Of a stretch of 64,000 nucleotides of DNA, positions 35-57,680 are shown in pieces. Each line of letters starts with the position of its first letter. Positions within the stretch are counted from its first letter, which is position 1. The position numbers were made by a program, and so were the translations under genes. The stretch is from an uncultured virus (IMG/VR IMGVR_UViG_3300031998_000016) (taxonomy: Duplodnaviria; Heunggongvirae; Uroviricota; Caudoviricetes), in IMG/VR virus record IMGVR_UViG_3300031998_000016; one strand, given 5' to 3'. The notes beneath the pieces are model-generated. The model was not told the origin of the DNA. It ran no database searches and worked only from the letters and a program-made list of their open reading frames with translations.

Positions 35-3000
35 TTACGATGGTAACAAATAACTACCATTTACACAAATGTGTCTATTTGCGGCGAGTGTATCTCCATA
101 ATATCTCAAAGTACCATCACTATTAAGATTTACACCGCAAGCTAATGGTGAAGCATTAGATTCATAAGCAACTATACCTGGAAGTACAATTGTTGAAGCC
201 GGTCTATATTCTGCCGCAACCGTACCAAGTAATGCGTTTGCATTACATCCACCGCTTCCTACTGTAAGAATGATTGATAATGTACCAACACTTCCTTTCT
301 TGAATACGATAGAGTTTCCAGAAAAGTTTGTAAAACCACTTGCACATGGGAACGAAACAGAAACTACTTCTTCAGTTGTTCCTCCGCCTCCGCCAATAGC
401 CTGAATGTTATTGTCGAAGATAGTGCTCTTTGGAGCTGTTGTGAATTCTTCCATGTTATCTAAAGTTACTGTGGCATTAGTAAAGGTTGTAAGTGAAACA
501 CCTTCTCGTATACCAACAAAATGTGTACCATTGTAATAAATGGATGCAATTGGAATTGGAGTACCGTCAGAGGTTTCTCTGTACCAGCCTGTTGTCTACG
601 GAATACTCCTCCAAGAATATGATGTAAAGCCCTGAGCAGAGAATTCAGCGGCAAGCGCATCAAATACTGCCTATGTATCGCCCTGGAATGAAGTGCTTGA
701 ATTTGTATAAAGGTCAAATGAAATATAATAATAACCTTTACGATATAAGTAAATACGATGTAAATACTTCGGACTTCCGCCGCCACCTGTTCCAACTGGA
801 GCACTAAATGCCTGAATTGGAGCTTCAACACCAAGAGCTTCACAGATTAAGCGGTACATAATGTAATGTCCGTCGTTATTTGGGTGAATATGGAACGGAT
901 ATGATACGCCGCCTACAGTAGTAGTTTCAGTCTGGTTGAATAATGAGTCGAAAGCGTCTGTATCGTAGTTGCAATACTTAAGTAATCCTTCATATAAGTC
1001 AAGAAGTTCAAGGTTGTTATCCTTTGCCCACTGAGCAAGAATACAGTGAACTTCGTTCATATTTGTTACGTACTTTCCGGCACCTGCTGGTCCAAGACCA
1101 TCTTCATTAACAAGAGTTTCAGCAGTACAACAAGCCGGGATAAACTTAGCACCAATAGCTCTTGCTCTGTTATACATTGTTGTATAGTCATTATAGAGAG
1201 CCGCCATTTCTGTGCTACCTCTACGGTTATTTGTACCAAACATTGCAATTACAACATTTGAATAATCTGGCATTGCTGTTTCAATGTTGTTTACGGCATC
1301 TGTTGATACCCAACCTGAAACACCAGTGTTAACAACTGATACACCGGCTAAGTATCTCTATGAAAGATAATCTGCAAGTAAAGCCGCCCATGATTTTCCC
1401 TAATCTGCTGAGTAACCATATGTAATACTGTCACCCATAAGAGTAAGGGTAATTGGGTTATTACGTGTGCCTGTTGCAAAAAGTGCTGAAAGGTCATTTG
1501 ATGGAATTGTTACACCAGTTACGCCACTTAAGTGGTCAAGTCTTGCCGCATTTTCACCGGCTGCATCGTTAGCAGTTTCGCCGCTCTTTGTCCAACTAAT
1601 TGTTGTCCAGTCAATTTCGTCATAAGCAACGCCATCGCCCGGATAGAAACGCATAACTGCTGAAGCGGCACCAGATGGAGCAGTAGAAATTACGATGTGA
1701 GTTGAACCTGAGTGTCCTTGCTCTGCACCAACATTTCCGCCGGCAGCATCCTTATACTGAACGCCAACCCATGTGTATGAGCCGCAATCGAATGTGTATA
1801 ATTCGCCTTCGTCTACAGTAGCTTCAAAGTAAACGTCATTGCCTTCACGATGAGCATACTTAGGAAGATAACGATTTACTGTACCACTACCACTTGTTCC
1901 ATCTGCACCATTTGTAACAGTGAATGTTGATGTAGTGCTGTCAGTGTATGTTATTGTGTAAGTGTCTACAAGTCCTTCTGTACCAGTCTTTAAAATGCTT
2001 ACAATACCACGTCCATTTGAACCGTTTGTTACGGCAAAAGTTGAGGTTGTATCATTTGTGTAAGTTATTGTGTATGTGTCCACAAGTCCGACTGTACCAG
2101 TCTTTGTGATAGTTGAAATACCAACACCCGCTGGGCCTGTCGCACCAGTTGCGCCATCAGCGCCATTAATAACATCAAATGTTGTTGATGTACCATTTGT
2201 AAAGTTAATTGTATATGTGTCAGTTAAGCCTGCTGAAACTGGACCAGTAATAGAAGCGATACCATTACCAGTAGCACCTGTTGCGCCGTTTGTTACAGTA
2301 AATGTTGATGTTGTACCATTTGTATAAGTAATGGTATAAGTATCAACTAAGCCAGCTGAACTTGTTTTTGTAACAGTTGAAATACCTCTACCTGGTGCTC
2401 CCGGAAGTCCATCTTCACCATTAGTGATTTGGAAAGTAGTAGGATTTAAATTATCTGTGTAGTTGATTGTGTAAGTGTCAATAAGTCCTTCTGAAACTGG
2501 ACCTGTGATACTTGCAATGCCACGACCTGTAGAACCAACAACTACACCAACATTTTGTGTTGTGCTGTTGCTTAAAGTAAGAACAAGTTCGCCATCATTG
2601 TTAATTGCCGCACTTGAAACAGACACACCATTTGCACCATCTGTACCGTTTGTTACAGTGAAAGTAGATGTTGTGTTATCGTCCATAGTGATTGTATATG
2701 TATCAACTTTTCCGGCTGTTGATGTTTTGGCAATAGTCTTAATACCGTTTCCGGCTGGACCTTGCTGACCAGTTGCACCGTCATTAACTACGAAAGTTGT
2801 TGTTGTGTTATCTGTAAATGTTATTGTATAAGTCTTTGCTAAACCAGTTGTATCTGTAAGTGTAATTGACTTAATACCTCTACCAGCCGCGCCGTCTGCA
2901 CCATTTGTAACTGTAAAAGTTGACTGTGTAGAGTCTGTGAATGTGATAGTGTAAGTATCAACTAAACCACTTGTACCAGTCTTAGCAATACCACTAATAC

Positions 3001-5893
3001 CCTTACCAGCAGCACCTGTTGCACCATTTGTTACGGTAAATGTTTCAGTGTCGCCATCTGAGTAAGTTATTGTGTATGTATCGACAAGTCCTGTTGTATC
3101 TGTCTTAGCAATTGATGTTACACCCCTACCTTCATCACCAATTACATAACCAGCATCAATTGGGCTACCTTCTGAAAGTGTGATGATTAAGTGTCCTGTA
3201 TTATCTACAGCCGCATTAGTAACGGATACACCATCGTCACCATCATTACCGTTCGCGCCATCTGCACCATCTGTGATGTCAAATGTAAGAGCAACTGTAT
3301 CGTCAGTAAGAACAACCTGATATGTACTCTTCTTACCAACTGTACCAGTCTTAGTAACTGACTTGATGCCAACGCCATCAGCACCGTTTGAACCATCATT
3401 ACCATTTGTTACGGTAAATGTCTTTGTCTGGTTATTTGATAAAAGGATTGTATAAGTATCTACTTTGCCGGCAGAACCAGTCTTTGTGATAGATGTAATA
3501 CCAACACCATCTGTACCATTCTGTCCGTTTGTTCCGTCTGCACCGTTTGTTACAGTGAAAGTAGAACTTGCGCCAGATGTATAGGTGATAGTGTAAGTAT
3601 CAACCAGACCGTTTGTACCAGTCTTAGTGATTGACGAAATACCTCTACCTGCTGGGCCTGTTGCACCCTGAGCACCGTTTGTTACAGTGAATGTTGAAGT
3701 GGTGTTATCAGTGTAAGTTATTGTGTATGTATCTTCAAGTCCGGCAGAAACTGGACCAGTAATACTTACAATACCCTTACCATCTGCACCCTTAACAGCA
3801 CCAATAAGAACTGGAGTTGCAGAGTCTGTATATGTTAAATAAAGATTTCCGTTTGAAATAGATGCCGCAGAAATACCTCTACCAGCCGGGCCTTGAATCT
3901 GACCAACGTTTTTAAATCCGTTTACTGAGCCAGCTTCTGTAGTACCTGTGTAAACCCACATATCGCCGCCAATAAGGTAAGCATCGCCTTTTGTCTGACC
4001 TGTTGATGGAAGGTCTGCAGAACTTGATAAGCTGTCGATGATATTGATTGATGTACCATCCTTACCTTGAACTTCACCGGCATCAATTGGACTACCTGAG
4101 CTAAGAGAAATAATAAGGTGTCCCTGTGCGTTTACTGTAGCTGATGTAACTGAAACACCATCAGTACCATTAGTACCGTTTGTTCCATTTACACCATTTG
4201 ATACGTTAAATGTTGATGTTGTACCATCTGTATAAGTGATAGTATATGTATCAACATTTGCGGCAGTTGATGTTTTTGCAACTGTTGTGATACCACGTCC
4301 AGCCGCACCGTTTGCACCGTCAGAACCATCTGTAACATAGAAAGCTGATGTTGTGTTGTCTGTGTAAGTAATTGTGTAAGTATGAACACCGTTTGATTCA
4401 GCAGTTTCTTCAATCTTAACAATACCTTTACCATCCGCACCATCGTTACCATTTGCGCCGTTAGCACCATTGGTTACTTGGAATGTTGTTGTAGTTCCGT
4501 CTGAGAAATTAATAGTATATGTATCAATAAGACCAGCCGAAATAGGGCCTGAGATAGATGTTATACCGCGACCTGGAGTACCCTGAATAGAACCGTTGTC
4601 CTTAAATCCATGAACTCTTCCGCCGCCAGTCTGACCATCATAAATCCAAAGATGACCATTGATAAGGTAAGTATCACCAATTTCATTGTTTTCTTCTGGT
4701 AAATCTGAAGGGTCATCGAAAGAACCTTTGATTTCAATTGACTTACCATCTTCACCTTTTGCTACACCGGCATCAATTGTTGTATTATCATCTAATGTGA
4801 TAATTAAGTGACCACTTGCATTTACAGCAGCACTCTTAACACCATTACCGTCTGCACCAGTTGCACCCGTTTGACCATCTGCACCTTTTACAACGCCGGC
4901 ATCTATTGTAGTGTTATCATCAAGAGTAAGGATTAAGTGACCGCTACCGTTAATTGTTGCGCCTTTAACACCGTTACCATCTGCGCCATTTGTGCCAGGT
5001 TCACCATTGTGAATTGAGAACTCATATGTTGTACCATCTGTATAAGTAATCTGATAAAGGTCTGTGAACTGTTCACTTGAAACTTTAGTAATAGAAGCAA
5101 TACCATTACCAGTTGCACCAGTTGAACCATCTGTGATAACTAAATCATATGTAGTATCATCACTGAATACAACCCTATAAGTCTTTTCAAGACCATCTGT
5201 TTCAATAAGACCAAATGATTTAACGCCCTTATATACGCTAATTGTACCATCTGCTGCAACACTAACATTCTGACCAACCTTTACGCCGCCAAGTGTACTA
5301 GCGGTTGCGGCTGGAAGTGTATAGAATGAAGGAGTCCAGTTAAGTACGATACCGTTATCGCCCCATGAACTTGATGCTGTAATAGCGTTCCAGCTATAAG
5401 GAGCATTTGTAAGTGAACATACCTTCCACCATAACGCTGGCTGATTTACCATTACTTCAACTTCTGCATTGCCGCTAAAAGGTAAAGCCTTTGAGTAAAG
5501 CTGACCAGTTATGATTGTATTCTGTGGTAAGTTCTTAGCAATAAGTTCGTCTGATATTTGCTTTAAAGTTTTTCCCGAAGTATTAATACCAAGAGCAGTA
5601 AATGTTGTGAAATTATACTGTGCAGATAACTTAGTATTAATATCAGCGATAACTCCGTTTAAGAGTTTAATTTCATTGCCACTCTAAACAAGAATTTCAT
5701 TACCATTAAAACCGATTAAGTCGCCAACTTCAACAGTCTGGCCGCCATCTGTTTTAGTGAGTGAGTATGTAACTTCTCCTGTTTGGGCTGTGTATTTTTC
5801 TACAGAATAAGTTGCGGTACTTCCACCGCCACCTCCTCCGCCGCCACCGCTACTAGAGCCAGTGCCGCCGAATGGGTCAAAGAAACTTCCCAT
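35..5893 (-). CDS. 1952-aa repeat-rich tail fibre/adhesin-like protein with SGNH/GDSL hydrolase domain (5 in-frame TAG=Gln)
   Basis: ORFs 5684-5893, 1400-5452, 671-1273 and 35-454 share one frame, separated only by TAG (5684, 1400, 1358, 671, 596). RBS GAGGTG before ATG 5893; ends TAA. About 26 beta-rich repeats with Gly-X-Y linkers. SGNH blocks GDSIT / NTGVSG / FGTNN / HIHPN span two TAGs. Confidence 0.85.
1890..5230 (-). repeat. Protein-level tandem repeat array in the fibre gene
   Basis: About 18 copies of GIxSIxKxxxxGLVDTYTITYTDxTTSTFTVTNG, 6 of GVxSAxVNxxGHLIITLxxxxxIDAGxVxG and 2 of SIxIxxSxxxxxDLP...GDxYLIxG. Confidence 0.9.
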
Positions 5894-6458: not shown

Positions 6459-6486
6459 ATTCTTCCACCTCACTATTCCTTTTTAT

Positions 6487-6515
6487 ATAATAACACAACT
6501 TACAACAAAAGTCAA
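6487..6515 (-). promoter_or_regulatory. Sigma-A-like leftward promoter
   Basis: TTGACT-17 nt-(TG)TATTAT on the minus strand upstream of the HPr-like gene. Confidence 0.6.
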
Positions 6516-6559
6516 GAGATTTGCCTTGATTAAGTTATTACTTTATTAAAGTGAAAATC

Positions 6560-6588
6560 TTTACTTTTTAAGTAAGTTGTGTTATATT
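6560..6588 (+). promoter_or_regulatory. Rightward promoter with upstream AAAGTGAAA element
   Basis: TTTACT-17-(TG)TATATT. Confidence 0.5.
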
Positions 6589-6630
6589 ATTATTAATATA
6601 TAATATAAATAGTATAAATTAGTTTAACTA

Positions 6631-12334: not shown

Positions 12335-14551
12335 ATGGAGAAGGTAATTAAACGAAATGGAGAAATCGTTGATTACGAAGGACTAAAAATTGAAAATGCC
12401 GTATATGGTGCTTTCAAGGAAGTCTATCCTAACTCAGAAGAACAAGACAGTGTTCTCATTGAAATGGCCGTAAAGATGATGGTTGAGGTTAAGTTTAGTG
12501 ATGTTGATGCTGTGAGTGTTGAAGAAATACAGGACGCTGTTGAAGAAAGCTTAATGCTGCTTGACAAGGACGTAGCTAAGGCATATATCCAGTATAGATA
12601 TAAAAGAGCTATAGCAAGAGATTCCCTTGATGCTCAGGTACTTGCTCTCTTAAAGGGAGAAAATGAATACCTGAAAACAGAAAATTCCAATAAAGACTGT
12701 GATATAGTAACAACTCAAAGAGATTATATTGCCGGTCTTACAAGTAAGGATATTTCTGCAAGATACCTTTTACCAAAGGATATTATAAAGGCGCATAATG
12801 CTGGACTTATTCATTTCCATGATATGGACTATTTTGTGCAGCCAATTAATAACTGCTGTCTATCAAACATGGATGACATGTTACAGAATGGTACAGTTAT
12901 GAACAAAAAGTTAATTGAACCTTCGAGTAAATTAATGAATAGAACAACAGTTATGACACAGCTCATTACTGCTATTTCAAGTTCTCAGTACGGCGGACAG
13001 ACAGTTAATTTATCAGCACTCTCACCGTATGTAAGAGAAACTCACGAACGCCTAAAGGAAAAGTATCGTAGCATGGGTTGTCTTGATGAAAAGGGTGTGG
13101 AATATTACGCATGGAAAGATATGCAGAAAGAAATCGAAGATGCAGTTCAGACCTTTAATTATCAGATTAATTCAATGTCTACAACAAATGGACAGACACC
13201 TTTTATTAGTGTGTTTATGAATATTGGTGATAAGGAAGGTTATGAACAGGAAACAGCCGCACTTATCAGAGAGTTCTTCAAGCAGAGAATTGAGGGTATG
13301 AAAAATGAACAGGGTGTTGCAGTTACACAGGAATTCCCTAAGTTACTTTACGTGCTCGATGAAAATAATGTTAAGCCGGGAAGTAAGTATTATGATGTGA
13401 CTCAGCTTGCCGCAGAATGTGTGGCAAAACGTATGCAGCCTGACTTCATTTCAGCAAAGAAAATGAGAGAATATAAAGACGGCAATGTATATGGTTGTAT
13501 GGGTTGTCGTAGCTTCCTTTCTGTAGATAGATTTACAGAACAATATGGTAATATTGCAAAGGCAAAGAATTTTGATGGCAAGCCTAAGTTCTGGGGCAGA
13601 TTCAATCAGGGCGTTGTTTCAATTAACCTTCCGGACGTAGCCTTTTCATCAGGCGGTGATATGGATAAATTTTGGCAGCTTATGGATGAAAGAACAGAGC
13701 TTTGTCATAAAGGTTTAAAATGCCGCCACGAAAGACTTGAAGGTACATTATCAGATGTAGCCCCTATCTTATGGCAGCATGGTGCTTTTGCAAGACTTAA
13801 GCCGGGCGAAAAGATTGATGAATTACTTCACCATGGTTATTCAACAATTAGTCTTGGTTATGCCGGACTTTATGAGTGTGTTAAGTACATGACAGGTCAC
13901 TCACATTCTGACCACGGAGTTGGTGAGGAATTTGGACTTAAGGTTATGCAGTACCTTAATGATAAGTGTGAGAAATGGAAGGCCGAAGAAGACATAGACT
14001 ATTCACCATATGGAACCCCTATTGAGTCCACAACCGATAAATTCGCTCGTGGATTAAAGAAGCGTTTTGGTGATGATATTTTTGTTAAGCTCGATGGTAA
14101 AGATAGAAATTACATTACTAATAGTTATCATGTTCCAGTATTTGAACACATCAATCCTTTTGAAAAACTGGAGATTGAAAGTAATTTCCAAGCATTGAGC
14201 ACAGGTGGTGCTGTTTCATATATTGAAGCCGCAAATCTTGAAAATAATATTGATGCTGTATTACAGGTTATTTCATTTATGTATGACCACATCTTATATG
14301 CAGAAATCAATACAAAGTCTGACTATTGTATGAAGTGTGGATATGATAAGGAAATTAAGATTATCACAGATGAAAATGGTAAACTTGATTGGGAATGTCC
14401 ACAGTGCGGAAACCGTGACCACAGATTTATGTCTGTAGCAAGACGTACCTGTGGATACATAGGTGCAAACTTCTGGAACCAGGGTAGAACAGACGAAATC
14501 AATAATAGATTTGTGCATTTAGATTGCCACGAGTTAGGAGAGATTAAATGA
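12335..14551 (+). CDS. nrdD: Anaerobic (class III) ribonucleoside-triphosphate reductase with ATP cone
   Basis: VIKRNG ATP cone, HFHDMDY, NNCCL, MGCRSFL, CxxC...CxxC, glycyl-radical RTCGYIG. Confidence 0.95.
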   Translation: MEKVIKRNGEIVDYEGLKIENAVYGAFKEVYPNSEEQDSVLIEMAVKMMVEVKFSDVDAVSVEEIQDAVEESLMLLDKDVAKAYIQYRYKRAIARDSLDAQVLALLKGENEYLKTENSNKDCDIVTTQRDYIAGLTSKDISARYLLPKDIIKAHNAGLIHFHDMDYFVQPINNCCLSNMDDMLQNGTVMNKKLIEPSSKLMNRTTVMTQLITAISSSQYGGQTVNLSALSPYVRETHERLKEKYRSMGCLDEKGVEYYAWKDMQKEIEDAVQTFNYQINSMSTTNGQTPFISVFMNIGDKEGYEQETAALIREFFKQRIEGMKNEQGVAVTQEFPKLLYVLDENNVKPGSKYYDVTQLAAECVAKRMQPDFISAKKMREYKDGNVYGCMGCRSFLSVDRFTEQYGNIAKAKNFDGKPKFWGRFNQGVVSINLPDVAFSSGGDMDKFWQLMDERTELCHKGLKCRHERLEGTLSDVAPILWQHGAFARLKPGEKIDELLHHGYSTISLGYAGLYECVKYMTGHSHSDHGVGEEFGLKVMQYLNDKCEKWKAEEDIDYSPYGTPIESTTDKFARGLKKRFGDDIFVKLDGKDRNYITNSYHVPVFEHINPFEKLEIESNFQALSTGGAVSYIEAANLENNIDAVLQVISFMYDHILYAEINTKSDYCMKCGYDKEIKIITDENGKLDWECPQCGNRDHRFMSVARRTCGYIGANFWNQGRTDEINNRFVHLDCHELGEIK

Positions 14552-21039: not shown

Positions 21040-21423
21040 ATGACTTTTAACGAAAAGGTTAATGCTATTAAAAAGTGGAAAGAACCAATAGTTACAGCAC
21101 TTAATATGGTTCTTGATTCATATTACGAACTCATTGTCAATTATACAAAAGGTGCAGACCATTCTTCGGTAGAACTTAATAAGAATCTACCGGAGGACCT
21201 TGCTCCTCTTATTAACGATATTAAGACAGATATTGATAAGTATAATGACATCAGACGTAAACTTCTCGCTGATGATTTTTCTGTAACTCCTCTTGAAGTT
21301 GGTTACATTAATAATGCTCTCACTTTTGCGATGATAAGGTTTGATAAGATTATCGACTATACAACAAATGCGAGAGAGATTACAAAAACAATTTCTGTGG
21401 TTCTTACCTCAGATGAAAATTAA
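21040..21423 (+). CDS. Hypothetical protein, 127 aa
   Basis: RBS AAGGAG before ATG 21040; appears helical. Confidence 0.7.
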   Translation: MTFNEKVNAIKKWKEPIVTALNMVLDSYYELIVNYTKGADHSSVELNKNLPEDLAPLINDIKTDIDKYNDIRRKLLADDFSVTPLEVGYINNALTFAMIRFDKIIDYTTNAREITKTISVVLTSDEN

Positions 21424-21556
21424 AAAGTGAAAAGCTTTACAAATCTTAAAGATTATGTTATAATAAATACATAATAAAAAAGACGAAAACTTTTTAGAAA
21501 AATTAAAAAGTGAAAGGCTTTACAAAAACAGAAAAATGTGTTATAATTAATACATA
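21416..21556 (+). promoter_or_regulatory. Tandemly duplicated promoter pair
   Basis: Two copies of AAAATTAAAAAGTGAAARGCTTTACA-17-TATAAT-WAATACATA (-35 at 21436 and 21519; -10 at 21459 and 21542). Confidence 0.85.
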
Positions 21557-21714
21557 GTAAAGATGATGTGAAAAGTTTAATTTTCCTTTCTCATGGTTTG
21601 TTCATTCCCTCCTGTAATATGATATACAACATCATCTTTGCGGCTTAGGTAGTTGGTATTTAATAAGGTTCGATTCCTTATCCTAGGCTTATAAATAGCA
21701 CGCCATGCTATTTA
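21553..21714 (+). ncRNA. Candidate structured RNA: long stem with anti-SD loop, tRNA-like mini-domain, 3' hairpin
   Basis: Stem 21557-21569/21629-21641. Acceptor-like stem 21643-21649/21682-21688 with T-arm ATAAGG-TTCGATT-CCTTAT. Hairpin TAAATAGCA-CGCCA-TGCTATTTA at 21692-21714. Directly downstream of a promoter. Confidence 0.6.
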
Positions 21715-21761
21715 GAAAAAAACAAAATAATTTTTTATATTTAACAAGGAGTGATTTAATT

Positions 21762-22022
21762 ATGGCAAAGACAAAGGGTAACTCAGAAAACACAATCAAG
21801 ATTGTAAATTACATGAAGGGAATCGGCGTGGGTGCAAAGCAGTCAGGCAAGGAAATCGCAGAAGCTCTCGGTTTCGAAAAGGTAGCTACTGTAACAGGCA
21901 CAATGCTTTCTCTTTATAAGAAGGGTGTAGTTGATAAGGAAAAGACAGAGAATGGTACTCTCTACTTCCTTACAGCAGACGGCGCTAACTACGACCCAAC
22001 AGTAGTTCCAACAGAAGCCTAA
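21762..22022 (+). CDS. Small winged-helix DNA-binding protein, 86 aa
   Basis: RBS AAGGAG before ATG 21762. SGKEIAEALG...VTGTMLSLYKKGVV...YFLTADG is a wHTH pattern. Confidence 0.7.
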   Translation: MAKTKGNSENTIKIVNYMKGIGVGAKQSGKEIAEALGFEKVATVTGTMLSLYKKGVVDKEKTENGTLYFLTADGANYDPTVVPTEA

Positions 22023-22042
22023 TCTACGGGCTTAACTCAACT

Positions 22043-22085
22043 GAAGTGACTGAGGGGATGTTCCCCTCGTTGCTTCTTTAATTTT
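22043..22085 (+). terminator. Hairpin, possible terminator
   Basis: GAAGTGAC-T-GAGGGGA...TCCCCTC-GTTGCTTC followed by a T-rich tract. Confidence 0.5.
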
Positions 22086-50471: not shown

Positions 50472-53400
50472 TTAATTCTGTTGTAAGATAGTAGGCGAAC
50501 CAATTGGTTTTGCTATTTCTACGATTTCTTGTTTAACACGTTCTATCATACTATCAACATCAACATCTGAGGATAATTTGTCGATATTAAGATTAATCTC
50601 TACCGCTACGTCTCCGCCGCGATTGTTGGTGATAGATTGTGAGAAGTTCTTGCCATCAAGCCAAGGAATATCAGCAAGGATTTTTGCGGCTTCACCGATT
50701 CTTGCTGTGTCTTCGGCTGAAAGGAAGGCTTCTGGTTTTGAGTAGGAACCATCTACCCAGGCCGGACCTGTGTAGTTTACAAGACCGCCGTCTGCATACT
50801 TTGATGCAAAAAGTGTTCCAGTTTTTGATGAAGCTTTTACAGCTAAACTTGCATAATTTAATATATCACTACCATGAACACCTAAACTATGAGCAAGCTG
50901 TGAGTATTCTGCCGGGAATTCTTCGTATAATTCTTTCATCATTTTCTCAGTAAAATATGTTCCTTTAGTATTTGTCTTCTCGAAGAGAGCCTGAGCAACC
51001 TGTGTTAATTGCCCCTTTGCCGTTCCCATATTTAATCCAGTAGTTAATAACTGTAAGAGTTCTTTTTTATCTTTTGAACCTAAGTTTGCTGTATTTAAAG
51101 GACCTATAGGTATATCACTAGAAACATTAAACTAATCACTTTCTGCATGACCAGGGGTAGTAGAACTTCCGCCCTATCCATCGCCGGCTCCAAGTTTACC
51201 AGCTAATTCATCAGCTTTTTCCGCACATTCAGCTAATTTTTCGTAAGCGTCTTGTAGTGCTTTATTAGCAGCATCAATAGCTTCTGCCGCTTTTTGCATA
51301 TCTTGTGTAAAGGCATCAGTTGTTTCATTAAACTGTCTAATAACTTCCTGTGTGAAAGCCTCTCCAGTCTAATTAACAATATTTGAAACTTCCTGTCCAG
51401 TTACTGTTGTCATTTCAACAATATAATCACCAGTTTCAGTTACTGCATCCATTGCTTGTAATGCCATGTATTCGGTAGCTTCTTCATAAGTATTAGCATA
51501 TTCTGCTAATTTTTCCTATTGCATAGCTAATGTCATGTCAGCATATTCCTTAGAAATAGAACTAATATACTGAGCATATTCTTCTGCATTATCAAAACTA
51601 TTTATCATAGATTCTGCTTTTGCGTTCCAATATGCTGTATTATCAACAATAGCTTCTTTAAGTTCCATTTCTTCATTACGAAGCTCTTCTTGTGATTCAT
51701 AAAGTTTTTCAAGATTGTCAACCACATTGTCAATAGCATCATTGAGCATTTCTTCTCTAGACTTTTCTACGTCTTTTTCAAGACTAGCAACTTCTTTAGC
51801 ATTTGCTCCTGATGTATCACGGCGCATAAGTGAAAGTTTCTTTTCTTGCTGTGCAAGTTCTTCCCATTTGTTTTCTTGTTCTCTTAATTTCTTTTGCTTA
51901 TCAATAGCATCTTTAAGAGCATCAAGGTAATCGTCATCTTGCTTCTTTAAATCATCATACTTAGATTTTTGGTCATTAACCTCATCTTCATACTGCTTCT
52001 TTAAAGCTTCTGCTAATTGCTTTTCAAGTGCGGTATATTTCTTTAAAGCATCTTCGCGTTCTTTCTGAATGTCCTTTTCTGCCTTTCTTACATTATCCTC
52101 AGATTTAAGTAATTCATCAGCATACTTGTTATATTCAGAAACTTGCTGTTCAATAAGGTCTTTAAACTTATCGCCAAAACGGGCTTCATTAAGAAGTCTT
52201 TGGTCAAGCATATATTTACCGGTTCTTGCATCTTTACGAGCGTAGTTACCAAAGTTAATATTAGTTGTTTCACCAGTTTGAGCATTAGTATAAGCATATG
52301 TGCCGTTTTCAATCATGTTACCATAATTGTTTAAGCCGGCCTTAATAGCTTCTTGCTTTGCCTTTTCTTCTGCGATAAGCTACTTTGTTGCCGCGCCATA
52401 CCTATTCATTGCATCAATAGCAGAGTCGATAGTGTTAGCATCTTCTACTATATCTTTCGCGCGAGAAAGTTCATCATTAAATGAACTTAATGCTTCGTTA
52501 TAGTTATAAAGATTATCAAGACTTGATTTACGATTCTCTGAACCATTTAATAAATCATTATATTCTTTAATCTTTTCATTAAGGTCTTTCTATTTTTCAG
52601 CAACATCTTCTTGCGCTTTAGCTAAGTCTTTTAAGGCTTTTTCATAGTTCTTAGCATTTTTCTCGGCATCAGTTTCGTCTTCCATAGTTGTGGCAAGGGC
52701 TTCATCTAAGTAAAGATAAGCACCCTCTGCATAGCCTTTCATGGCTTCAATAGTTGATTTTAAAGCTTCTATACCGGCTTCTTTCTGCTTAATATCTTCT
52801 TTTTCTGCTTCTGTAGTCGCCTAAGTAGCTTTCATTATTAAGAGCTAATTTTCAGCTACAGATAAATCAGTTTCCATCTTAGCAATTTCTACAGCAATTT
52901 GGTCTTTATAAGCCTATGTTAAATCATTAACATCTTTGATTGAACGAGTGTTATAATCTAAGAAATCATTAGGGTCAAGACCAATTTCACGGAGATTCTT
53001 ACTTATGCTTGTAAAATTATTAGGAGTTAAGAAACCTTTTTTATGGAATTCTGTAAGTGCATTTGTGATACCAGAGAATGATTCAGAAATGCTATTAATA
53101 GCATTTTCTGCATCTTCTTGCATTTGGTCAACACCGGCTTCACTAGCTACGCCCATACCATTCATAATACCATAACTTATGCCGCGTTCCATTTCAGTTT
53201 GCCAAATATCAGCAGCCTATTCCGCAGCATTTTCAATAGAAGGGTTTGCTTCCTTTAAGGCATCTGCCATACCTTCTATTGTTTTTTGCTTGGTCTTCGC
53301 ATAATTTGAAGAACTTAATTGTGTTAAATCTATTGAAGTTAGTATGTCCTGAATCTTAGAACTATAGCCAGTATTTTGTATTTGACGGAAGTAACTTGTT

Positions 53401-56400
53401 GCTTTTTCAGAACCAATTGTTTCGCTTACTCTTTGGTATCTGTTATAAACACCCTATAACTCTTCGTAAGATGCATCAAGAGGAACTAATAAACCACTTT
53501 CTAATATTTTATTTTCAAGCTCTTTGGTTTTGTTTTGAACGATTTCAAGTGTTGCGCTCTTTACTGAGTCAGGTAACTTTTCACTTTCTTTTTCAAGTTG
53601 CTCTTTAGTATAGGTTACCCATTCTTCGTCAAACTTTTTAAAACTTTCTATTTCACTTTCTGCAAGGGATTCATAAGTATCTAAATAAGCGTCAATAGCA
53701 TCAGAATTTTTTAACCACTGTTCAATTTCAACATCCTTTTCTTCCCAGTTATCTTTGGTTAATTCAAGAGTTTTAACCATTTCTGGGTAAAGATTTTTTA
53801 TAGTATCAAAATCCCAGCCTTCTACTGAATATTCTTTTTCTGTAATTTCAGTAGCCTGCTAAATGGCCTAAGCCATAAGCATGGAATCATTCATTAATGG
53901 TGCTAATTTTGAAACTTGTGTTGCATCATACTGTGAGTTAAATTTTTCAATTTCCGTTTGTAAACCAGTATTATAAATCTTTAACGCATTTTCATATTGT
54001 GTTTTAAGTTCGCCGCTAAAATAATCAGCACTGGATAAAGCCTATGCAAGTGTTACGTCTCCACCGGCTTCTTCCATTATAGCCTTCATTAGGTTTAAAT
54101 AGTAATCTGGTAATTCTGAGTTTTTAACCACATCTTTTAAACGAGTAGTGTTATTAATACCAGCTTCTTTAGCAACCGTAGACATTTTGTTGAAATCGGT
54201 ATCATCTGGATTTGCTATTAACTTTCCTTTTGCATCAAGTTCTGACATGGCTGTTATATATGCAGATTTCTTAGCATTTTTTGCCTAAATATCTGCTTTT
54301 TCAATTATGTCATCCCACAAATCATTTTGAATTCTTAATTCACCAGTTATTTCATTATAGTATTCTACTATTTCAGGGAATTTAGTTCTTATTGTTTCTA
54401 TTAATTTATTATATTCTTCTTGTTCTTCTTCTGTCTTAATAACTACGCCATTAAGCTCCTAATATCTTTTCTTTACTTCTTCAACATTATCGGCTTCTTC
54501 TTGTGCATTTTTAGCTTCATCTGATTTTGTCTAAGCAAGTTCTTCTAATTCCTCTGCCGCTTCTCTAGTTCTTTCGAGCTTCTTTTCTACAGAATTAAAT
54601 TGTTGATTCTTTACCAGGTGTGCAATTCCCCATCCAGCAAAAGCTAATGCTGCGGAAATTGCTCCAACTAATACAGATAAACCTGCTGAACCTACTGCCG
54701 CACCTTCTGCAAGCGCTGCTCCCATTTCCTCGCCTGTAACAAATAGCTAAGGAATTAACGGAATTAAAGAAGTGAGTAACATGATGCCGGCATTTCTAAA
54801 GGCTGTTTCAGCATCCGTTATTCCACTTACAACACTAGTAAATGCCATACCTAAAGTTGATAGTGGCATAGCTAAACTTGACACAAGTTGCTTGCCTGTT
54901 ATTTTAAGTCCCTAAGCTCCAACATGAAGAGTTTGTTCTATTCTACCAACTTCATTATTTAATTTTTTTACTCTATCTTCAGCAGCTGTAGCTACAATAA
55001 CATTTTTCCTAAGAGCTTCCGCAAACTCTTCGTCTGATAAGGTAGCTAAACCTAATTTATCTTTTAACTAGTTAACCCATGAAGTAAAGCCCTAAGTGGT
55101 CTAACCAGCCGCGACCATTGTATTGTAATAGTCTATTAAAGAATGAAGAGCATTATCTGAATAAACATTAAGTTCTTTAAAACCCTCTGCATACTACCTA
55201 ATAAACAAATCTCCATTTGCCGGAGCATTTGTACCAATAGTCATTGTCTACAAAGCATCAGAAATTGTTAATCTTATTTTTTGTTTAACATTTTCTAGGT
55301 CTCTTGTAATGGCTCCCATCGGGAGTTTTATAGGAATAGTTAATGGTTTCTGTTCAAGTAACTTTGATGCCGCGCCAATACCATCTGTAAGCTATTTTGT
55401 AAATAACTTAACGAAACCAACGGTACTTACAATACCAGTACCCAGTGTTGCAAGTGTTTCTTTAAGATTTAAAGAAGACAGTCTTTCTAGAATATGTGTT
55501 AAATGGTCAAGTAGGCCTTTCCAAAGCTCATTATCAATAATTGAAACTTTAAATTCTTCCCATAAAGTTTTTATCTTATTTATTCTATATTCAACTGTGT
55601 CTGAATATTTACTGAACTGCTGATTGGCTTTGCCGGCTGAATTTGCGGCGGTATCCATAAGTTCTACAGTTCTGTCATAACCTTCCATAAGAGCAAGGAA
55701 ACGAGACTGCTGTCTTGAGCCGGCCGCAATTGTAGCAATATAACGCTGAGTATTACGGTCTAATGATGACCATTTACCAGATAATTCAAGTAATACTTCA
55801 TCAAGATTTCTAAACTGTAAATTTTCATCCTTAAGCTAAATGCCTACAGATTTTAACGCTTTATCAATCTTGTTAAGGTCTATACTCTCTACGTCACCTT
55901 CTACATCAGAAACATTATTCTTTAATTCACCAAATCTCGCGATAATAGTTTTTAAAGATGTACCGATGTTTTCTGCACCTTCCTGAGTGGTTTCAAGCAT
56001 ATGAGTAAGGAATACGGCTGTATTTTCAAAACTCATACCAGCAGAGTTTGCGATAGCTGCAGTTCTTTCCATAGCTGCCGCAATTTCATCAACGGTTGCA
56101 GCTGCGTGAGCGGCAAGTTCTGAATAAACGTCAGTAATGTGTGAACCTTCATTCATTTCCATATTGAAACCATGAAGTGTAGATGTCATTTCTTTTGTGG
56201 CTGTACTAAAGTCACTACCTGCTAATGTAGCAAGTTTCATAGTATCTGTTGTTAACTATAAAGCTTCATTAGTATCAAGACCTTGCTGATAGAAAAGAGC
56301 TGATGCCTGGATAACGTCTGTAGTAGACTGACCTAATCTTTCGGCCATGTTAGCATACTATTCATAAGAACTCCACATCTGCTTAACAGATTTATCAGTA

Positions 56401-57680
56401 ACCATGGCGATAGAACCGAAGGCTTTATCTATGTTCTAAATGTCAGTAAATGTTTTCTTAACTTCTTGTCTTATTCTTAACCAAATAGTTTGGAAACTAA
56501 AGATATAAAGTAATTTTTGTCTTAGTCCCTCAATGGCAACACTAGCCTTATTGGCGCCGGTAGCCATAGTCTATTGGGTTTCGGCCATGGCATTAAATTT
56601 TGCACGACCCTCATCAACCTCATTATCTAAGTTGTCTAATATTATATCCTGTTGTGCTAATACTTTATTAATACGTTCTTCTTTACCTAAAGTACCTGGC
56701 AATATACGGTCTAATTGTGCATAAGATGCAGCTATGTTTTTTAATTGACCCTCAACCTATCTCATATATGCTGCACTAACTTTCCATGTACCAGATTCTT
56801 TATCTTCTGTACCAATTAATCGAGCATTCGCTTTAGCTTCTTTTCTTTCACCAACGAGAGCCTTACCTTCTGCAGTAAGGTCTTTAATTTTTTTCATTTC
56901 CTCAATAGCTGCCGCTAAATTATCATAGAACTATTTCGCACCAGTATTTGCTACGTTTAACGCGTTACCAAGACCATTTTCTGCAATATATTTATTAAGA
57001 CTTTTCCATGCGCCTTCAACAGTCTTTGCTGTGAAAATAATCTCTTTTGCTCTTTGTAAAATAGCTGCTCTATTACCAGCATCTCTACCGCCGCCTGATA
57101 AGATATTCATAGATTTTCCGGCGGCATCAACGCCCTAATCTGTTATCATATTTAAAGCATTATTTTTAACAGTTTCTTTTTGGTTCTTTATAGCTTCTTC
57201 TCTAGCTTTAATATTATTTAATATATTAACCCTAGTCTGTAATTCTGCATTAATTTCTTTGTTTATAGCAGATTGTTTATCTGAAGCTACAAGAATGTTT
57301 TTCATTACTTTATCAATATTCTAAAAACCAGCACTACTAAAAACGCTATTTAAACCAGCTAACGCCACCTTAGTTTTTCCACTTAAATCCTTAACATCAA
57401 CTCTTAAGTTTTTAAACTGTCTATCAAGGTCTTTAAAATTTAATATAAGGGCATTAACATCCTATTGATATTTATCAATGTCTTTACCAGTGGTAAAACC
57501 TTTTGTACCTTGCTGTTTTAATTTAGCATACTGTTTTTCTAATCTTTCTAAACTTTTATTTATAGGAGATAACGCATCGGAACTATAACCAGCAGCCTCC
57601 ATCTCTTTTAATGCCTTTTTATAGCTAGAGACAAGACTGGTAGTATCGAGGTCTACACTATAAACTGTTTTATTTCCCAT
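50472..57680 (-). CDS. Tail tape measure protein, 2402 aa (at least 30 TAG)
   Basis: Nine supplied ORFs lie in one frame. TP901-like core (IAMVT...LFYQQG...MKLATLAG...ENIGTSLKTIIARF), hydrophobic mid-segment, coiled coils, C-terminal YADGGLVNYTGPAWVDG...PEAFL. 34 in-frame TAGs counted by hand; not every gap was checked for TAA/TGA. Confidence 0.85.

Follow-up and report, generated by a model that had tools for sequence, protein, structure and literature searches.

A conserved stem-closed hairpin and an armless tRNA-like element, inserted together, in the predicted mRNA leader of a large uncultured phage

The window analysed here is a stretch of 64,000 nucleotides (nt) from a large uncultured phage (IMG/VR record IMGVR_UViG_3300031998_000016), and our subject is a plus-strand hairpin at 21553-21641, which a preliminary description had proposed as a small antisense RNA that presents anti-Shine-Dalgarno sequences in a stem-closed loop and is cut free by an adjacent tRNA-like domain. 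A close relative, 96% identical over the element, is represented by a complete genome of 180,579 bp with terminal repeats (G002), and the sequencing runs with words in common with this DNA (24 listed) are metatranscriptomes from bovine and sheep gut. On the 5' side of the element lie genes for GyrB- and GyrA-like proteins, followed by an open reading frame (ORF) of 134 amino acids (aa). On its 3' side lies an 86-aa gene (21762-22022, plus strand), whose product gives a weak MarR-like winged-helix match (phrog_1687, E 7.7e-5) and whose start codon is preceded by the Shine-Dalgarno (SD) sequence AAGGAG (21746-21751, plus strand). A terminator-like hairpin with a T run (22051-22079, plus strand) then marks the end of the transcription unit; the terminator scan found no such site within 21553-22051, the hairpin having no terminator of its own.

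Two promoters in tandem lead into this unit on the plus strand, the upstream copy P1 (TTTACA-17-TATAAT with TG, 21436-21464) and P2 (TTTACA-17-TATAAT with a TG extension, 21519-21547). P2, which the preliminary description had placed just before the hairpin, is present with a consensus score of 11/12, keeps its core in the related contigs L002 and L199, and is predicted to start transcription at ~21553-21556, a position derived from the usual promoter-start spacing. The word GTGAAARGCTTTACA has only two exact copies in the window, at 21427 and 21510, and the region 21421-21552 reads as a tandem promoter duplicate that includes this upstream word. Behind P1 comes a short, degenerate hairpin (AAAAAG..CTTTTT), which repeats in degenerate form the hairpin plus AGAAAAA found 3' of the insert described below; the duplicated promoters and this degenerate copy therefore suggest a local duplication linked to the insertion. 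Between the element and the 86-aa gene stands the palindrome AAATAGCA-CGCCA-TGCTATTT (21693-21713, plus strand), the sequence of which is kept in distant relatives directly after the promoter, and which is probably an operator and/or the 5' hairpin of the mRNA. Among phages only ~50% identical in GyrA, the arms of AAATAGCA-N5/6-TGCTATTT are identical and the centre is free (L017, ~5312-5334; L018, ~5354-5374). By this pattern, the palindrome looks more like the operator of a dimeric winged-helix protein, that is, a site of autoregulation, than like an RNA hairpin kept by covariation.

The hairpin is closed by a stem of 13 pairs, 12 of them Watson-Crick and one U-G (21558/21640), formed on the plus strand by the 5' arm GTAAAGATGATGT (21557-21569) and the 3' arm ACATCATCTTTGC (21629-21641). 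The stem begins 3-4 nt after the predicted P2 start and ends at the base before the acceptor helix of the tRNA-like element. It encloses 59 nt (21570-21628, plus strand), as first described, and both loop motifs noted at the outset, TTTTCCTTTCTCAT at 21581-21594 and TTCATTCCCTCCT at 21601-21613, are present. The loop had also been called pyrimidine-rich in a purine-rich plus strand, and this is borne out: pyrimidines make up 63% of it, a share reached by only 0.9% of the 59-nt windows in the plus-strand gene block, which stand at 45 +/- 7%. Between 6000 and 40300, the plus strand has just two copies each of CCTCCT and TCCTTTCT, and the loop contains one of each. RNAalifold predicts three parts within the loop, a hairpin A (21570-21585), a single-stranded linker CUUUCUCAUGGUU (21586-21598) and a hairpin B (21599-21628), whose 13-nt apical loop UCCCUCCUGUAAU spans 21606-21618. 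A 12-nt segment on the 5' side of P2 (AGAAAAATTAAA, 21496-21507) shows 92% complementarity to the beginning of the loop (21576-21587); in P1 transcripts it could compete with the inner hairpin A, or it may reflect chance in A/T-rich sequence.

Folding of the hairpin alone gave a minimum free energy (MFE) of -18.6 kcal/mol (z = -2.6, 2/200 shuffles as good), and folding it together with the tRNA-like part gave z = -3.0, with 0/200 shuffles as good. The minus strand gives an equally good fold (z = -3.1); one pair of the stem (U-G) and two of the acceptor helix (G-U) can form in plus-strand RNA only. Counted by script (13 bp, at most one G-U, loop of at most 100 nt), stems of this kind number three on the plus strand of the window, against 1.2 +/- 1.05 in 60 dinucleotide shuffles. 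Since a 13-bp stem is by itself not rare window-wide, what supports this one is its flush position, with the transcription start on one side and the acceptor stem on the other, together with its conservation. The repeat search did not list the stem, presumably because GATGATG was taken as a 3-base run. An intrinsic terminator was rejected as an identity for the hairpin: G-C pairs account for 4/13 of the stem, GGCUUAGG stands directly 3' of it in place of a U run, and the terminator scan returned none here. Rfam gave 0 matches at gathering score in the whole window and, with E up to 10, chance-level matches only in 21400-21800 (best E 0.12), among them a snoRNA owed to the GAUGAUG stem; the C4/CI antisense family, tried as a candidate, was matched at neither setting.

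Directly adjoining the 3' arm of the hairpin is a tRNA-like element (21642-21689, plus strand) that has neither a D stem nor an anticodon arm. It consists of an 8-bp acceptor helix (21642-21649/21682-21689), a D-loop-like TAGTTGGTA and a T arm of 6 bp with the loop TTCGATT (21663-21681), and only 13 nt separate the acceptor helix from the T arm. The acceptor helix is stacked on a GGTTCRANYCC T arm, the only exact occurrence of this motif in the window, in a fold without decoding capacity, as is characteristic of t-elements. With these arms missing and 0 tRNAs called by ARAGORN in the window, a canonical tRNA was ruled out.

We searched IMG/VR for similar elements with the D-loop word followed by the T-loop word (TAGTNGGTA-N3-14-GGTTCGANTCC) and obtained 106 viral loci (L093-L198), 75 of them distinct. 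Matches were called armless when they had an acceptor helix that is flush and at least 6 bp long, and no room for an anticodon arm, which was the case for 32/75 distinct viral matches; a further 8/75 lay inside ARAGORN-called genes and the remaining 35/75 were something else. An acceptor helix of at least 7 bp was found in 26/75, compared with 2.5% of 1500 controls with shuffled 5' flanks. The evidence for a class is this shuffled-flank control, a MAFFT alignment of 23 distinct armless elements having misaligned the acceptor helices. Those 23 elements contain 18 different acceptor sequences, suggesting that the helix has been kept through changes on both sides. Among the matches listed for bacterial and archaeal genomes with the same pattern (120 loci, L206-L325), 100/121 distinct hits lay inside ordinary tRNA-Leu or tRNA-Ser genes and 5/121 were armless, against 32/75 for the viral matches (Fisher 3e-11). 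Three armless viral examples (L100, L111 and L158) are located in short gaps between same-strand genes. Taken together, these sequence comparisons place the tRNA-like element in a phage-enriched class that lacks the anticodon arm. Many contigs of a single large gut collection share one family, with the acceptor GGTGCAA. In the tRNA cluster of G002, a 3-kb slice of which contains eight tRNA genes and no suppressor, a second T-arm-like sequence, GTAGG-TTCAAGT-CCTAC, lies directly 3' of tRNA-Trp (L009, 878-925); it received no ARAGORN call and could be one more incomplete tRNA-like piece.

The hairpin and the tRNA-like element together form an insert of ~133 nt, placed exactly between the transcription start and the palindrome in the window, L001, L002 and L199, in the same orientation in 4/4 contigs. 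L001 is identical to the window, so that three haplotypes are available (window/L001, L002 and L199). The insert is absent from L017, L018, L019 and L022, which have the same gene order and a GyrA 50-52% identical: there, the promoter is followed by 5-15 nt, AAATAGCA-N5/6-TGCTATTT, an A/T-rich spacer, the SD sequence and the homologue of the 86-aa gene. Relative to these phages, the pair is a single lineage-specific insertion.

Searches with a model built from two sequences (R1) found no second copy of the element in the window and 75 other loci, nor in five related records that include four complete genomes. Among 73 GyrA loci, no element was found outside two close contigs. A search of viral and metagenome collections with the 86-aa protein returned only haplotypes 98-100% identical, or relatives of 38% identity or less without the element, and blastn against a phage collection gave no match. 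The same-stem pattern was met at seven foreign loci, all of unrelated sequence, and no relative of the hairpin was found among them. Five unrelated viral contigs (L327, L328, L329, L333 and L334, 301-382) carry an identical 62-nt A/T-rich segment inside G+C-richer sequence, with the same 10-bp inverted repeat at its flanks, a repeat that resembles the hairpin stem by chance. The leader of the same small gene in L014 (GyrA 58% identical; ~5020-5085), read by eye, lacks the palindrome and has a different 9-bp stem, ATAAAACAC/GTGTTTTAT, which closes a ~41-nt loop. In L006, the ~130-nt leader between tandem promoters matched nothing in Rfam and gave a fold without signal (z = 0.16).

Comparison of the window with L002 provides a measure of constraint. 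Neutral references were the 4-fold sites of gyrA, which differ at 56/309 (18%), and three neighbouring spacers, which differ at 28/115 (24%). Against these rates, we counted 0/26 differences in the stem, 2/48 in the tRNA-like part, both in its unpaired D-loop region, 0/24 in the linker and palindrome, and 0/18 between the SD sequence and the start codon. The probability of 0/26 is 0.0055 at the 4-fold rate, the stem differs from the spacers with a Fisher value of 0.002, and neither arm has changed in the three haplotypes, indicating that the stem is under purifying selection. Counted as events against L002, the loop has four changes (one insertion, one deletion and two substitutions), which is slower than neutral (P = 0.012). 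These changes cluster at 21590-21597 and 21612-21616; the block UUGUUCAUUCCCUCC (21598-21612) is invariant, and UCCCUCC, in the predicted 13-nt apical loop, is kept in 3/3 haplotypes. A comparison of stem with loop across relatives, suggested with the initial proposal, thus gave an invariant stem and a loop that varies at about the spacer rate with its UCCC/CCUCC block kept. We conclude that the hairpin structure is real and that its stems are conserved.

We propose, tentatively, that the hairpin is the cargo of a non-coding cassette, composed of a stem-closed RNA and an armless tRNA-like element, that was inserted between the transcription start and the 5' hairpin or operator that a small, strongly expressed gene had before. 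The proposal builds on the sequence, the fold prediction, the insertion seen by comparison with relatives and the selection on the stem, and from these we infer transcription from P2, cleavage, stability and any target. P2, and P1 by read-through, would transcribe the hairpin, the tRNA-like element, the palindrome and the gene as one RNA. Host enzymes that act on tRNA ends would recognise the tRNA-like element, RNase Z cutting after the discriminator at ~21689 and RNase P possibly at 21641-21643. The mRNA would be left with nearly the same 5' end as in insert-free relatives, its palindrome hairpin 3 nt from that end. The freed RNA would measure ~85-140 nt, both ends locked in the 13-bp stem and the tRNA-like part kept or lost, and the product may be a rod-shaped composite RNA of ~137 nt. 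It would expose the UCCC/CCUCC tract in the apical loop together with the CU-rich linker, and the exposed tract could act as do the C-rich-loop small RNAs of low-GC Gram-positive bacteria, covering SD sites.

Each half of such a cassette has precedents. Plant-mitochondrial t-elements in mRNA leaders are described as directing RNase Z and RNase P cuts; in cox1, an RNase Z cut at the leader t-element makes the mRNA's 5' end, while on the leader piece there are non-templated C/A additions (PMC1920247). Like the t-elements treated by Forner et al. 2007 (PMC1920247), the phage element is a tRNA-like fold that cannot decode, has a perfect GGTTCRANYCC T arm and lies within an mRNA leader, and by analogy cutting at the 3' border would produce the 5' terminus of the mRNA and set a leader RNA free. 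Unlike them, it belongs to a phage of a bacterium and not to an organelle, is smaller, without D stem or anticodon arm, and is preceded by an RNA closed by a 13-bp stem. In the tRNA-miRNA (TMER) units of MHV68, a tRNA-like module is a built-in cutting signal. The same use of a tRNA-like module, with a second RNA made from the same transcript, is reported for MALAT1-mascRNA, and RNase P is said to process phage regulatory RNAs as well as MALAT1/mascRNA (PMC4919922). MALAT1 and TMER are eukaryotic nuclear systems in which the tRNA-like module comes 3' of a long RNA or precedes pre-miRNA hairpins on the 5' side, whereas in the phage cassette the cargo is 5' and the mRNA 3'. The cargo itself resembles RsaE/RoxS and RNAIII in its unpaired UCCC or C-rich loop tract and protective 5' hairpin, as these RNAs are presented by Geissmann et al. 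2009 (PMC2790875). It differs from them in that neither sequence nor Rfam relates it to them, a terminator of its own is lacking and no target was found in the window. By analogy, the cassette would thus combine two known kinds, t-element-type processing and a C-rich-loop RNA.

If the cassette works as proposed, phages could equip an existing transcription unit with a small-RNA gene that needs neither promoter nor terminator of its own, and leave the mRNA undisturbed, borrowing the tRNA-processing enzymes of the host. The purpose of the many armless tRNA look-alikes of phage genomes would then be explained, and a search rule for phage small RNAs would follow, namely to look 5' of armless elements.

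Several results weigh against this proposal. First, the loop, with 11/59 columns variable in the three haplotypes, drifts at about the local spacer rate. Second, no compensatory change appears at any of the 48 predicted pairs in the three near-identical haplotypes; because only these close sequences were compared, the argument for a stem-closed RNA structure draws on conservation, not covariation. Third, no CCA is encoded by the tRNA-like element. Fourth, the combination of hairpin and tRNA-like element does not appear to be a recurrent design: among 33 armless elements, a flush 5' stem of 13 bp is found only in the two from this lineage, and the other 31 have 4-8 bp, none exceeding 8 bp. Fifth, a cut between hairpin and tRNA-like element is doubtful. 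The contact between the RNase P protein and a leader needs a single strand, and only 0-1 unpaired nt separate the stem from the acceptor helix, leaving no single-stranded leader. A contact of the bacterial RNase P protein with the pre-tRNA 5' leader is described in PMC4919922. In this structural model, an RNase Z cut 3' of the tRNA-like element seems more plausible than release at the 3' end of the stem. The initial idea of a small RNA cut free by the tRNA-like domain therefore survives in part: the adjacent element is of a kind capable of directing cuts, but the flush stem offers a poor context for RNase P. By analogy with the systems above, release of a small RNA is plausible, with the cut more likely to fall 3' of the tRNA-like part.

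RNA libraries bear on the same question. Contigs of four rumen metatranscriptomes cover the 86-aa gene, one of them at a depth of 107, from a relative 90-95% alike. No contig extends over 21516-21700 in these four libraries; small RNAs are usually lost in such libraries, and the contigs give no verdict on the hairpin RNA. In two studies, contigs belonging to relatives 90-95% alike stop at 21701 and ~21710, inside the palindrome and 12-21 nt past the border of the tRNA-like element; contigs cannot show ends, and these stops are at most a weak hint of an RNA 5' end within the palindrome. Such an end would fit a promoter start if the relative lacks the insert, or processing if the relative carries it.

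The supposed action of the loop, to block ribosome-binding sites as an anti-SD sequence, fared less well. The promoters in the window are of the TTGACA/TATAAT type and SD-like motifs precede 15/22 plus-strand and 5/8 minus-strand gene starts, from which it follows that the host probably uses SD initiation. By fold prediction, the loop carries an unpaired, conserved UCCC motif, and UCCC motifs in unpaired loops of RsaE/RNAIII-type small RNAs are described as binding SD sites and blocking initiation (PMC2790875). When the loop was paired with 64 phage start regions, the mean duplex energy was -15.0, compared with -14.3 +/- 0.75 for shuffled loops, and 16/100 shuffles were as good; the longest exact complement to the loop in the window is 12 nt, as in shuffles. 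The best predicted target, nrdD at 12335, was matched by 2% of shuffles, and its start region is 99% identical in G002, too alike for co-variation. In the MFE fold of the full leader (21553-21765), the loop is unpaired with the SD sequence of the 86-aa gene. Moreover, because both early and late phage genes use SD sequences, a general anti-SD RNA would hit the phage too, and selectivity would need flanking pairs, none of which is visible. Both the pairing statistics and this lack of selectivity add to the case against the proposal. An anti-SD function is thus unsupported, and the release-factor target that had been floated with it is speculation. The boldest form of the proposal, in our judgement improbable, is that host enzymes cut a passenger RNA from an early mRNA leader and that its UCCC/CCUCC loop blocks the SD-dependent translation of chosen host mRNAs, for example that of release factor 1, given the amber recoding of the phage. 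The tRNA-like element, acting as a portable cutting signal, would then give the mRNA back its native 5' end, and the RNA would possibly keep a tRNA-like handle with a CCA end. If true, this would provide a bacterial-virus counterpart of MALAT1/mascRNA or TMER and a function for the phage-enriched armless class.

The main rival to the cassette is an uncut leader that acts in cis, in which hairpin, tRNA-like element and palindrome protect the mRNA of the 86-aa gene against 5' exonucleases or tune its translation, and in which the CU-rich tracts are incidental or pair with the gene's own AAGGAG. We regard it as somewhat unlikely. The leader of this gene begins with a hairpin in other lineages too, the palindrome standing at ~+5 to +12 in L017 and L018 and the 9-bp stem with its ~41-nt loop, by eye, in L014, and 5' hairpins are credited with RNA stabilisation in Bacillus subtilis and Staphylococcus aureus (PMC2790875). 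A flush stem unfavourable to RNase P, and stems conserved while the loop drifts, would also fit such a leader. By contrast, the absence of loop-SD pairing from the MFE fold speaks against tuning through AAGGAG, and a tRNA-like fold with a perfect T loop would be odd in a mere stabiliser. The armless class, in its three examples, sits between genes and not at 5' ends, and in relatives the palindrome is already the 5' hairpin. If the element proves to be only a leader structure, it would represent ordinary 5'-end protection, and the interest would lie in the tRNA-like class.

A decidedly less probable explanation places the feature at the DNA level, as a recent insertion scar or a small mobile or invertible segment without RNA function, the 13-bp repeat being a recombination or target-site feature and the loop a reversed piece of a purine-rich ribosome-binding site and start. 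The element is indeed lineage-specific and adjoined by the tandem promoter duplicate, the reverse complement of its loop resembles a ribosome-binding site plus ATG, and chance stems of this size arise about once per 64-kb strand. Such a scar, however, would not explain why the stems are far more conserved than neutral sites between haplotypes 18% apart at 4-fold sites, nor why G-U pairs suit plus-strand RNA only. A mobile or invertible segment is further countered by the single orientation in all four contigs, and by the lack of another copy in the window or in four related complete genomes and of a hairpin relative elsewhere.

Very unlikely is a coding loop, in which a 26-codon plus-strand ORF, from GTG at 21568 to TAG at 21646-21648, encodes a hydrophobic leader peptide of small size; the pyrimidines would then be due to U-rich codons, and with the TAG in the acceptor helix, late read-through could remodel the leader. 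The ORF is open in 3/3 haplotypes, a +1/-1 indel pair within 7 nt preserves both frame and loop length, and the product is rich in hydrophobic residues. Yet no SD sequence precedes the GTG (15/22 plus-strand starts have one), the GTG sits in the 13-bp stem, and an open frame of this length is expected by chance in U-rich sequence at ~0.1-0.3 per frame, a rough estimate from base composition. The differences between haplotypes are all non-synonymous with 0 synonymous, and the stem codons show no third-position change, which points to nucleotide-level constraint in the stem. In a phage that reads TAG as a residue late in infection, read-through of the TAG that ends the ORF at 21568-21648 (plus strand) would add five codons. 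Finally, a minus-strand product, either the mini-ORF MRKEN, named beforehand as a possible refutation, or a minus-strand RNA, is barely credible: AGGAGG does lie 11 nt before its ATG and the minus strand folds as stably as the plus strand, but the mini-ORF is not conserved, a frame shift in L002 extending it from 5 aa to ~32 aa (alignment read by eye), the promoter-like sites are weak at only 9/12, and the G-U pairs turn into A-C mismatches.

Two further groups of phage RNAs invite comparison with the hairpin. The loops of the C4 and CI RNAs mask a ribosome-binding region. Like C4 RNA of P1 and P7 and CI RNA of P4, described as matured by RNase P from a longer transcript (PMC4919922), the proposed product would be a phage regulatory RNA released from a longer RNA. 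The targets of C4 lie in its own operon, whereas no such complementary sites exist for the loop of the phage hairpin. Phages T4 (species 1 and 2) and T5 produce stable small RNAs of unknown function from their tRNA clusters, processed together with the tRNAs; the phage hairpin, in contrast, lies in an mRNA leader, far from the tRNA cluster of the relative.

The genetic code of the window was of interest because the preliminary description had assumed amber recoding. Plus-strand genes at ~6.7-40 kb follow the normal reading, and minus-strand genes past 40.7 kb have long frames only with TAG read as a residue. The late-type genes at 40695-63999 and 35-5893, all on the minus strand, are intact only if TAG is a residue, as exemplified by the gene at 50472-57680 (minus strand), with 35 in-frame TAG codons; the plus-strand block is mostly without such need. 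The assumption thus fits. Where the minus-strand and plus-strand gene blocks switch, a 51-nt imperfect inverted repeat (6485-6590), 75% complementary, includes a perfect stem of 14 bp along with a promoter-like word akin to P1 and P2, and may form a divergent promoter region.

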